This document shows positions 1 through 11,265 of a stretch of 64,000 nucleotides of DNA, in pieces. How positions within the stretch are numbered: position 1 is the stretch's first letter; each line of letters opens with the position of its first letter. The position numbers and the translations under genes are program-made. A model generated the notes under the pieces. It did no database searches, had not been told where the DNA came from, and was given only the letters and a program-made list of their open reading frames with translations. The stretch comes from Candidatus Thorarchaeota archaeon (GTDB taxonomy: Archaea > Asgardarchaeota > Thorarchaeia > Thorarchaeales > Thorarchaeaceae): assembly GCA_016933575.1 (NCBI GenBank), contig JAFGAR010000081.1, positions 201,020-265,019 of the forward strand, given 5' to 3'.

Positions 1-1252
1 TCATTCTAGCTTGTTTGATGGCAGTCATGCAACATACACGAGAGCAGTATTTGTTCGTCAGTTCATCACGGCTTCCTACACATTGTACGTAGACCATCTT
101 CTTTGGTTCTTTGAGGTCTGAGGGTCTCACCATATGACCCTGTGTAGGTCCTGCAGAACTTAGCATTCGCTCGACTTCACCGATATTGACAACATTTGGA
201 AACTCACCATATCCGTATTCTGGCTTTTTCGTAGCATCAAACAAATCGAATCCTGTAGCAACAATAATGGTACCTACTTCAATCTCGATTATCTTCTCAT
301 GATCATCGTAATTGATTGCCTCAGCATCGCATTTGTCCTTGCACTTTCCACATCTAACTGCATCTACACCAAGACAATTCTCCATATCGAGGAGATAGGC
401 TGATGGGACTGCTTGCGCAAATGGGATATAGATTGCTTTTCTGTAGGAGAGTTGGGCTTCAAACTCTGCGGGGACATCCACTGGGCAGACACTACTGCAG
501 TCTCCACATGATGTGCACTTTGCAACGTCTACATACCTCGGATGCTGTCGAATCTTCACCTTGAAATTACCAACATAGCCATCAACCTCATCCACCTCAG
601 CAAAGGTCAATAGTTCGATATTGGGATGAGCCCCGATCTCTGCCATTCTAGGAGTCAGAATACATGAACTGCAATCAAGAGTGGGGAATGTCTTATCCCA
701 ACGTGCCATCTTTCCACCAATGCTTGGTTCTTTCTCGACCATATAGACCTTGAAGCCAGCATTGGCAAGATCAAGGGCTGCAGAGATACCCGCAATTCCT
801 GCTCCTACAATCAGGGTGGACTTCTTGATTGAGACCTCTGGTTCTTCTAATGGTTCTAAGAGTCTTGCTCGTGCTACAGCCATGCGAATCAGGTCAATGG
901 CTTTCTCAGTTGCTGCGGCAGGATCATCTGAATGAATCCAGGAATCATGTTCTCTGATGTTAGCAATCTCCAAGAGAAATGGATTGAGTCCAACCTCACG
1001 CATCACTTGTCTGAAGGTAGGCTCATGCATTCTTGGAGAGCATGCGGCAACAACGACGCCATCTAATCTACTATTCTTAATGTGGTCCTTCACTATCTGC
1101 TGACCCGGTTTTGAACAGACATATTTGTAGTCATCAATAACTTCGACATTAGGAAGCTTAGCAATGGCTTCCTTGACTTTCTCAATATCAACAACACCAG
1201 CTATGTTACTTCCACAGTGGCAGATGAAGACACCAATCTTTCTATCAGACAT
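1..1252 (-). CDS. hdrA: Heterodisulfide reductase subunit A (5' part; runs off the window; absent from the ORF track)
   Basis: Manual translation from ATG at 1252: MSDRKIGVFICHCGSNIAG...ACSPRMHE...ANIREHDSW...GAGIAG...DKTFPTLDCSSCILTP...CTSCGDC...VQCVGSRD...YCSRVCC. No in-frame stop was seen. Confidence 0.95.
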   Translation of the reverse strand, partial: MSDRKIGVFICHCGSNIAGVVDIEKVKEAIAKLPNVEVIDDYKYVCSKPGQQIVKDHIKNSRLDGVVVAACSPRMHEPTFRQVMREVGLNPFLLEIANIREHDSWIHSDDPAAATEKAIDLIRMAVARARLLEPLEEPEVSIKKSTLIVGAGIAGISAALDLANAGFKVYMVEKEPSIGGKMARWDKTFPTLDCSSCILTPRMAEIGAHPNIELLTFAEVDEVDGYVGNFKVKIRQHPRYVDVAKCTSCGDCSSVCPVDVPAEFEAQLSYRKAIYIPFAQAVPSAYLLDMENCLGVDAVRCGKCKDKCDAEAINYDDHEKIIEIEVGTIIVATGFDLFDATKKPEYGYGEFPNVVNIGEVERMLSSAGPTQGHMVRPSDLKEPKKMVYVQCVGSRDELTNKYCSRVCCMTAIKQARM

Positions 1253-7885: not shown

Positions 7886-8230
7886 CTATCTTCTTCCAGT
7901 CTGCTGGAATGACCAATCTATGTTGATTGCTTCTTTTGGAAATCCGAGTTTTTCCAGAACTTCTCCTATATTTGCCCTATGGTCTCCCTGCAGCTCGATA
8001 TGACCGTGTTTTGCAGCTCCTCCACAGGCAAGCTTGGCTTTCAACTTCGTGGCAAGGTCGTTTAGATCGATATTTTTATCGAAGCCTTCTAAGATCAAAG
8101 TCAAACGACCCCATTTACGGCGCTCGACAGTCACATTAATTCTTGCCTCTTCCTGAGCGATTGTTTCGCACACACAGAGATCCTGAGGCAAACCACAATT
8201 CGGGCAGATTCCGCCTTCGTCGTTACTCAC
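7886..8230 (-). CDS. sui1: Translation initiation factor aIF1/SUI1
   Basis: CPNCGLPQDLCVC, KLKAKLACGG, IELQGDHR. Confidence 0.95.
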   Translation of the reverse strand: MSNDEGGICPNCGLPQDLCVCETIAQEEARINVTVERRKWGRLTLILEGFDKNIDLNDLATKLKAKLACGGAAKHGHIELQGDHRANIGEVLEKLGFPKEAINIDWSFQQTGRR

Positions 8231-10027: not shown

Positions 10028-10171
10028 GTGGTATACACCTGTCATAATTGTCATAGAGAAGTAACCCCTGATGGTCTGAAGACCCTCCCAGGAGTCAAAT
10101 GTCCGTACTGCGGTGGTAGAATTCTCTACAAGGTTCGTCCGCCAGTTGTCAAAAGGGTCAAGGGTGCTTGA
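10028..10171 (+). CDS. rpoP: DNA-directed RNA polymerase subunit P (Rpo12), 47 aa; below the ORF-track cutoff
   Basis: MVYTCHNCHREVTPDGLKTLPGVKCPYCGGRILYKVRPPVVKRVKGA. Confidence 0.93.
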   Translation: MVYTCHNCHREVTPDGLKTLPGVKCPYCGGRILYKVRPPVVKRVKGA

Positions 10172-10189: not shown

Positions 10190-10291
10190 CTATATTAGTC
10201 CCAGAAGTAACATTGTTGTGATTACTGTAGAGGCAATCAGCAGTACCAAGAAACAGACCGAATACACCTTTCTTCTAGTTTCGCGTTTCAT
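10190..10291 (-). CDS. 33-aa single-TM microprotein
   Basis: MKRETRRKVYSVCFLVLLIASTVITTMLLLGLI; ATG 2 nt after the Get3 stop, GGAGGA upstream. Confidence 0.6.
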   Translation of the reverse strand: MKRETRRKVYSVCFLVLLIASTVITTMLLLGLI

Positions 10292-10293
10292 TT

Positions 10294-11265
10294 TCAGTCC
10301 TCCGTGTGATTGTTTCCAATGAGAATTTCGCCAAGTCTAGTGAGCCCTTCAATACCTCTAATCTCACCATCAAACAGAGGTACTTCTGTAAGGTCTAAGT
10401 CTGAGTAGAGGTCCCTGATATCATTAAGGTTTGCCTGTTGCATCTCGTATCGCTTTGTACAGAACTGACAGGTAGGATTTGGTGGTACAAGTTGATTGAC
10501 AACCATATTATTGGCTGGAATGTGCCACGTATTCAGACTGGCTAAAAGTCGTTGAGTTTCAAAGACTGCCATTGCTTCCGGAATCATGACCACAACGAAC
10601 TGTGTTGTGTCCGGATCTGAGAGTTCAATTCTTGCCTGTCGAATCTTATCCTTTGTCTGTTGGATCATCTTCCAAGAATCGTCTTCTTGCTCTTGCCCCC
10701 CACCAAACAGTCCTCTTAGACCTCCAAGCATCGAACTCAACCTCTGGCGAAGTGTTAGCATTTTTCCCAGCCAGCTATCAAGAAGATCTGGCAACTCCAG
10801 AAGTTTCAAAGTATGTCCTGTCGGAGCAGTATCGAAGATGACCCTGTCATAGGACGAGTCTTCTATAAACTCCAAGATCTTGCCAAATGCCATAGCCTCA
10901 TCTGATCCCGGTGGTGACATTCCTGTCATATCCCCCATCAGATTCGCAGCCATCTGAGCTTCGGGACCAGCCATACCATCGCCTACTATGTTCTGAAATT
11001 CCTGCATACCCTTCTCAGCATTGATCTCCATTCCCCAAAGATTATCAAAACCCTTGATAGGAATAACTTCTCCGCCTGAGAGATCTTGGTCAAAACTATC
11101 ACTCAGACTATGAGCTGGGTCAGTAGATAGAACGAGTGTTCGAAAACCATGTCTTGCAGATAGTACTGCCATAGCCCCTGCACAACTTGTCTTTCCGACA
11201 CCACCCTTGCCTCCAGAGAGGATGAACTTGAGAGAGTCCTTGTATACAACATCGCGGAGAGTCAT
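10294..11265 (-). CDS. Get3/TRC40/ArsA family ATPase
   Basis: GGKGGVGKT, STDPAHSLSD, DTAPTGHT, Met-rich insert, C-terminal CQFC. Confidence 0.92.
   Translation of the reverse strand: MTLRDVVYKDSLKFILSGGKGGVGKTSCAGAMAVLSARHGFRTLVLSTDPAHSLSDSFDQDLSGGEVIPIKGFDNLWGMEINAEKGMQEFQNIVGDGMAGPEAQMAANLMGDMTGMSPPGSDEAMAFGKILEFIEDSSYDRVIFDTAPTGHTLKLLELPDLLDSWLGKMLTLRQRLSSMLGGLRGLFGGGQEQEDDSWKMIQQTKDKIRQARIELSDPDTTQFVVVMIPEAMAVFETQRLLASLNTWHIPANNMVVNQLVPPNPTCQFCTKRYEMQQANLNDIRDLYSDLDLTEVPLFDGEIRGIEGLTRLGEILIGNNHTED

Follow-up and report, generated by a model that had tools for sequence, protein, structure and literature searches.

The window, i.e., the complete stretch of 64,000 nucleotides of Candidatus Thorarchaeota DNA that was analyzed, carries a gene for a Get3-type ATPase and, immediately downstream on the same strand, a very small gene encoding a predicted membrane microprotein. 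The features of the locus are the following:

10294..11265, minus strand: get3, encoding a single-domain Get3/TRC40/ArsA-type ATPase of 323 aa, recognized by Pfam, NCBIfam and PDB matches
10298-10303, minus strand: GGAGGA, a Shine-Dalgarno-like site within the final codons of get3, placed 6 nt upstream of the start codon of the microprotein gene
10190..10291, minus strand: microprotein gene, 33 codons plus stop, recognized from the ORF list, homologues behind Get3, profile matches and pN/pS
10028..10171, plus strand: rpoP, running convergently to the pair and encoding the 47-aa subunit P of RNA polymerase, with a match to Pfam Zn_ribbon_RPAB4 (1.6e-6)

The get3 stop codon TGA (10294-10296) is separated by two bases (10292-10293) from the microprotein start codon ATG (10289-10291), and the microprotein stop codon is located at 10190-10192. 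Since the rpoP stop lies 18 nt from the latter, the microprotein ORF occupies most of the 122-nt spacer between get3 and rpoP. NCBIfam RpoP models also match the rpoP product (E 6.5e-17), with scores under their curated cut-offs. Further genes in the neighborhood of the pair encode a radical SAM protein, BacA and a protein whose match to Phosphodiest (type I phosphodiesterase) is weak and remains under the threshold. Moreover, an aIF1/SUI1 gene is present at window positions 7886-8230 on the minus strand (Pfam SUI1, 1.2e-16).

The 323-aa ATPase matches Pfam ArsA_ATPase (PF02374) with an E-value of 9.4e-87 over residues 13-316 and contains the P-loop GKGGVGKT at residues 19-26. It exceeds the cut-off of the NCBIfam model TIGR00345 GET3_arsA_TRC40 (287.6 bits, cut-off 135) and remains far under the cut-offs of the two-domain arsenical-pump equivalogs (128 versus 650 and 152 versus 800). 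In a PDB sequence search, algal ArsA1 (5zme) was the best match (E 1.4e-127), accompanied by the archaeal Get3 structures 3zq6 (E 6.3e-76) and 3ug6 (E 8.1e-70) and by yeast and human Get3 (E 1e-50 to 1e-62). The CxxC dimer motif of Get3 named in the initial annotation was found as C266-x-x-C269, and both cysteines are invariant in an alignment of 40 Asgard Get3 sequences. The 'Met-rich insert of TRC40/Get3' that was likewise claimed combines two features that do occur, but at separate places. A Met-rich stretch with eight methionines lies within residues 79-125, whereas the segment usually named the TRC40 insert is the helix-7-to-9 segment, which corresponds to residues ~170-205 and shows a gap of only 2 residues relative to MtGet3 (3zq6; residues ~160-260 aligned). 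In length, P-loop, CxxC motif and helix-7-to-9 segment, the ATPase agrees with archaeal Get3 of M. thermautotrophicus (3ZQ6) and M. jannaschii (3UG6) and with eukaryotic Get3/TRC40. Based on these sequence matches, the protein is an ordinary archaeal Get3, of which the window's genome holds one full-length gene copy.

The deduced microprotein reads MKRETRRKVYSVCFLVLLIASTVITTMLLLGLI. Its residues 1-8 (MKRETRRK) form a basic N-terminus with K or R at five of eight positions, and a hydrophobic helix extends from approximately residue 9 or 10 to residue 33, leaving no residues beyond it (0-5 in relatives). The best 17-residue Kyte-Doolittle mean amounts to 2.58 for the window's peptide and ranges from 2.4 to 3.5 across the ORFs scored. 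A serine, Ser21 (codon at 10229-10231), is located in the middle of the helix. [quoted passage not shown] By the positive-inside rule, its N-terminus is predicted to be cytoplasmic. The initial annotation had described a small ORF starting 2 nt past the Get3 stop, with a basic N-terminus and one tail-anchor-like TM running to the C-terminus; these coordinates and this anatomy are borne out.

In order to evaluate the conservation of the ORF behind Asgard get3 genes, which had been named in the initial annotation as a point to be checked, the 3' flanks of 57 related Asgard loci were inspected, and a homologue of 30-36 aa was found directly behind Get3 in 39 of them. All 29 loci of a first set (25 from the same genus, four from other genera of the window's family, termed f1 in the following) feature an ORF of 32-38 aa with a basic N-terminus and one helix, starting -4 to +5 nt from the get3 stop. 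Among 28 further get3 flanks, 10 carry such an ORF, namely those of five more f1 genera, of f2, the sister family of f1 represented by its sole sampled genome (n=1), and of the families f12 (n=2), f6 (n=1) and f15 (n=1); the remaining 18 are devoid of it. ORFs were selected automatically (start at -30..+80 nt, length 25-45 aa, second residue K or R, 17-residue hydrophobicity >2.0), five starts were reset by hand and the f15 ORF was added by hand. The resulting set of 40 peptides, including that of the window, represents five GTDB families from more than one class. The alignment of these 40 sequences shows no variation at M1 and S21, whilst at least 90% of them keep K8, giving the consensus MKRxxKxKxxSxxFxxLFLASxxxAIYLxxxP. 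Furthermore, Ser21 is retained in all 12 further database representatives inspected.

Substitution patterns were analyzed for the 35 f1 sequences. In 99.7% of 595 pairs, pN was lower than pS, and the median pN/pS, which is 0.52 in frame, rises to 0.84 and 1.25 upon shifting of the frame. A dN/dS of 0.31 was obtained from the 233 pairs with finite dS. Codon-position entropies of 1.16, 0.76 and 1.61 identify third positions as the most and second positions as the least variable.

Searches of reference collections returned no established family. As an indirect gauge of annotation, nine of ten exact microprotein sequences, including that of the window, are absent from a collection of 15 billion proteins, and the single one present carries no name. 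The profile built from the 40 peptides yielded 13 matches at E<=1e-3 among 1.84 billion representatives; all are 32-36 aa long, and in none of these 13 is the peptide fused to Get3 or to any other protein. The window's peptide matched no Pfam or NCBIfam family at E<=0.01, and none of the 40 members reached a Pfam family cut-off; COX7a appeared below threshold for 10 of the 40 (best E 0.013, 16.4 bits versus a cut-off of 22.1). In the PDB, nothing above threshold was found with the peptide (best E 3.6), and the ESM Atlas returned 'hypothetical protein' clusters only (best score 0.80).

An ORF arising by chance in the spacer between get3 and rpoP, or non-coding conservation there (a terminator, 3' UTR or small RNA), would agree with most gene callers skipping the ORF, as seen from the nine of ten exact sequences missing from the protein collection. 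It is, however, scarcely credible in view of a frame that is open at all 40 loci, of the codon-position and pN/pS signals that are lost in shifted frames, and of lengths holding at 30-36 aa though identity to the window's peptide drops to 19-44% in 35 of 39 relatives. Moreover, no Rfam match was obtained at E up to 1. The sequence record thus comes close to refuting a non-genic origin, and the microprotein represents a clear case of a conserved gene missed by standard gene calling.

The spacing between both genes is narrow throughout. Start offsets from the get3 stop are -4 (five loci), 0 (one), +2 (24), +3 (two) and +5 nt (five), with +14, +31 and +43 occurring once each; accordingly, 37 of 40 ORFs, including that of the window, start at -4..+5 nt. 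Shine-Dalgarno-like GGAG, GAGG or AGGA motifs are present at -16..-4 in 33 of 40 loci versus 12% of random 13-nt windows from the same loci, and five of the seven loci lacking such a motif show GGTGA. For the window, the 2-nt gap and the GGAGGA site point to co-transcription and make translational coupling of the microprotein to get3 most likely. A programmed frameshift or read-through fusion with Get3 was considered and ruled out, as the frame of the peptide relative to get3 varies between loci. Two metatranscriptome runs of the same study provided 0 contigs at the locus, while two DNA runs covered only parts of it. Overall, the ORF is clearly conserved, evolves under purifying selection and keeps its tight coupling to get3 across the Thor class and three further Asgard families. 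That the microprotein gene is real and coupled to get3 can be regarded as nearly certain.

To determine the distribution of the gene, the 40-peptide profile was searched over 400 genomes of the phylum, 338 of which encode Get3 at E<=1e-60. The families with profile matches standing out from the background are:

f1, the window's family: 81 of 85 genomes, one copy each
f2: 1 of 1 genome, one copy
f6: 1 of 1 genome, one copy
f15: 4 of 4 genomes, one copy each
f12: 16 of 19 genomes, one copy each
f24: 6 of 6 genomes, weaker matches

In f1, the match lies directly 3' of Get3 in 82 of 82 genomes having one, the window's own included, as compared by eye between the tables; in 81 of these genomes both genes reside on the same contig, and in G382 the pair is split over two contig ends. 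Neither match was obtained for three f1 genomes (G021, G367 and G375) that are 71-80% complete, and in a fourth (G368) the contig stops inside Get3. Hence, among Thor-class genomes with a readable get3 3' flank, none is without the ORF. One genome of the window's genus, G011, carries the regular copy and, ~600 nt downstream of it, a second match that covers only profile positions 8-32 (G011:C292:6384-6458, minus strand, E 1.8e-8) and may be a local duplication. Among the matches listed, the peptide adjoins Get3 in 14 f12 genomes and in three of the four f15 genomes, the fourth being G063; in two f12 genomes (G152 and G159) a diverged copy adjoins get3. As the window's class consists of f1 and f2 only (87 genomes), f6, f12 and f15 belong to other classes, so that the conservation behind Asgard get3 genes extends to three families beyond the class. 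In most other Asgard families, the profile retrieved nothing convincing (e.g., f3 0/4, f7 0/5 and f13 0/3). Matches at E<=0.01 were recorded in 155 of 400 genomes in all, and those outside the six families given above are weak. In f9, weak matches were obtained in 18 of 135 genomes, and those listed are mostly inside long ORFs. Weak matches with E >1e-4 (f5, f9, f14, f21, f23, f29 and others) were taken as noise, most of them being inside ORFs of 145-2670 aa.

A Get3 tree was calculated from 40 rows, comprising 17 of the 35 f1 rows and every one of the 23 rows from other families. Get3 sequences accompanied by the peptide do not form one clade in it, and at least four gains or losses are needed. 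For example, f12 is sister to the peptide-free f3 and f15 to the peptide-free f8. This scattering implies that the pairing is old with losses, was repeatedly kept, or moved together with get3. By eye, no feature in the C-terminal Get3 region (residues 255-323) was seen to track the presence of the peptide. In two f12 genomes (loci L038 and L044), a gene for a zinc-ribbon protein of 68-71 aa with an RpoP-like end is located on the same strand downstream of the peptide ORF. Together with the convergent rpoP behind the pair in the Thor family, this indicates that the three-gene neighborhood seems to be older than the class.

The weaker matches in f24 derive from a look-alike ORF occurring in all six genomes (22.6-30.4 bits), in which a basic stretch is followed by ...LRRKILAIILILLFLG[S/T]... 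(ILILLFLG[S/T]). Two examples are located as follows:

L091, 717-833, minus strand: f24 look-alike in G166:C1, at ~2.779 Mb
L093, ~539-698, plus strand: f24 look-alike

In the closed genome G166, the look-alike (2.779 Mb) and get3 (1.906 Mb) are ~0.87 Mb apart. At the two loci inspected, it is situated between the gene for a 207-aa protein and that for a small Ras/Rab-like GTPase. Provided that the f24 look-alike is genuinely homologous, the peptide can be retained at a distance from get3. Short ORFs of like build, with a long basic stretch and a helix with a central Ser, were also seen in f26 and f9 at ~21-22 bits (L101 in G176:C297, L105 in G255:C60 and L109 in G258:C113). Among the matches listed, that of G176 is not beside Get3. 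These ORFs could be distant unlinked relatives or chance occurrences.

Candidate insertase components were located elsewhere in the window's genome, which has two Ylp1 genes and an EMC6-like gene, none of them at the get3 locus:

G000:C57:179990-180457, minus strand: Ylp1/DUF106 gene (EMC3/Get1 superfamily)
G000:C150:2686-3150, minus strand: Ylp1/DUF106 gene (EMC3/Get1 superfamily)

Two Ylp1/DUF106 genes are present in 34 of 38 Thor-class genomes versus 2 of 23 other Asgard genomes sampled, and in many Thor genomes one of them shares its contig with get3, at a distance of 26-34 kb. A correlation between Ylp1/DUF106 paralogue number and the peptide was rejected: f12, f15 and f6 possess the peptide and one Ylp1 gene, and the peptide-free genomes G044 (f9) and G051 (f14) possess two. 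According to the available parts of PMC8675477 and PMC5868721, archaea do hold EMC6-like and Ylp1/DUF106 proteins, which are distant relatives of EMC6 and of Get1/EMC3, respectively.

Based on gene arrangement and peptide anatomy, a chaperone of GET type that brings its own membrane microprotein is proposed as a candidate system, in which the peptide is predicted to act as a client or as a membrane-side partner. In the favored scheme, get3 and the 33-codon gene constitute one bicistronic unit encoding a single-pass membrane peptide of predicted N-in topology. The ribosome exit tunnel holds roughly 30-40 residues. The whole peptide is thus about as long as the tunnel, which would preclude co-translational capture and suggests insertion after release. 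The very hydrophobic helix would be shielded by Get3 translated from the shared mRNA, which would also deliver the peptide to the membrane. Once inserted, the peptide would remain part of the Get3 pathway, serving as a partner on the membrane side that is specific to the lineage. Its N-terminus, short, basic and juxtamembrane, with the conserved Lys8, would face the cytoplasm. The helix with the invariant mid-membrane Ser21 would pack on itself or on an insertase subunit (Ylp1/DUF106 or EMC6-like) and, so packed, might dock or regulate Get3 at the membrane.

A role as partner is suggested by the strict coupling, which is typical of subunits, by a cytosolic part too short to function independently and by the invariant mid-helix Ser, which suggests that the helix packs specifically. 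HHpred searches revealed no archaeal GET2 according to the available part of Lewis & Hegde 2021 (PMC8675477), and the membrane side of archaeal Get3 would on this basis be vacant, which was also counted for a partner. Several observations speak against it: Get3 lacks an adjacent peptide at 18 of the 28 further loci, the f24 look-alike is not beside get3, neither Get3 C-terminal features nor Ylp1 paralogue number track the peptide, and fused forms were not encountered among the 13 database matches. In addition, Get3 occurs on its own in most Asgard families, the two Ylp1 genes and the EMC6-like gene of the window's genome are not neighbors of the pair, and the N-terminus is far shorter than the 147-residue tether of Get2. 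Moreover, with only 8-10 cytosolic residues, the basic N-terminus is explicable by positive-inside topology alone. Taken as a whole, the statement that Get3 inserts a tail-anchor-type membrane peptide that then serves as its lineage-specific pathway partner is put forward tentatively, as a reading that may about as well fail as hold.

Two other explanations accept the gene and assign it differently. The peptide may be purely a dedicated client, i.e., cargo depending on Get3 as it is too short for co-translational targeting, with a job of its own outside the GET pathway, e.g., as a small subunit or regulator in some other membrane complex. Its tail-anchor topology, very hydrophobic helix (Kyte-Doolittle 2.4-3.5) and tight coupling to get3 are consistent with such a role, an invariant mid-helix Ser would fit packing on any membrane partner, and the unlinked f24 look-alike shows that such a peptide may live away from get3. 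Furthermore, archaeal Get3 binds tail-anchored proteins in vitro according to the available part of Farkas et al. 2019 (PMC6593721). However, a general chaperone normally needs no single client welded to its gene in more than 100 genomes, and it can be argued that one client made in coupled and near-stoichiometric fashion would be a competitor of all others. No candidate target complex was noticed among the nearby genes (rpoP, radical SAM, the weak Phosphodiest match and BacA) either. This explanation is doubtful, but deserves to be taken seriously.

Alternatively, the peptide could be a functionally unrelated passenger, namely a small membrane protein that shares the get3 transcript by gene-order inertia. 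Its absence beside Get3 in most Asgard families and its unlinked position in f24 would be accounted for in this way, as would the placement of get3, peptide gene and rpoP within a longer collinear block of Thor genomes, which includes, e.g., the Ylp1 gene 26-34 kb away. Against inertia, the pairing persists in other classes at 44-56% Get3 identity, and the start distances of -4..+5 nt in 37 of 40 loci go beyond what inertia usually leaves. A passenger is therefore considered improbable, and the peptide as a Get3-inserted partner in the Get3 pathway is retained as the tentative working model. The pairing with get3 holds in more than 100 Asgard genomes. For the question of how tail-anchored proteins pass from archaeal Get3 to the membrane, the peptide offers a concrete and cheaply testable object.

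With respect to known systems, the coupled gene sets the window's Get3 apart: in the main article texts available, no description of a small membrane-protein gene coupled to get3 was found for any archaeon. The initial annotation had drawn an analogy to the Get3 receptor Get2/CAML. Get2 has three TMs, and Get3 is caught by its N-terminal basic motif. Like Get2/CAML, the peptide is of membrane-protein build and has a basic N-terminus, which is predicted to be cytosolic; in contrast, it has one TM and a cytosolic part of ~9-10 residues. The three-TM architecture with an EMC6-like fold and the long basic N-terminal tether of Get2/CAML are both missing from the peptide, in which a basic cluster is present, and no homology to Get2/CAML was detected. 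In the available part of PMC9932932, the flexible cytosolic N-terminus of yeast Get2 comprises 147 residues and an antibody epitope of Get2 begins SELTEAEKRRL; likewise, the fold of Get2 is described as resembling EMC6 in the available part of PMC8675477. Given these differences and the many Asgard families that keep Get3 without the peptide, the resemblance is weak and an analogy at most, and a role as general Get3 receptor is excluded by the latter distribution. It is rather unlikely that the peptide is a minimal one-helix membrane receptor or tether for archaeal Get3, standing in for Get2/CAML and docking by its basic N-terminus beside a Ylp1/EMC6-like insertase. If true, a prokaryotic GET pathway would thereby gain its first component on the membrane side, and this within those archaea that are closest to eukaryotes.

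Other counterparts in build are the minimal tail-anchored clients of Get3/TRC40, such as Sec61-beta/Sbh1, sarcolipin and phospholamban. They share with the peptide one C-terminal TM, almost nothing past the helix, a cytosolic N-terminus as predicted for the peptide and a length too short for co-translational targeting. The peptide differs from them in having only 8-10 cytosolic residues and in being encoded within the chaperone's own operon. Small single-TM accessory subunits such as KdpF, Ost4 and COX7a/COX8-type proteins constitute a further class, resembling the peptide in their size of 30-40 aa, in a lone helix that keeps a small or polar residue and in being co-encoded with the machine served. 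These subunits serve membrane complexes, whereas the co-encoded partner of the peptide is a soluble targeting ATPase.
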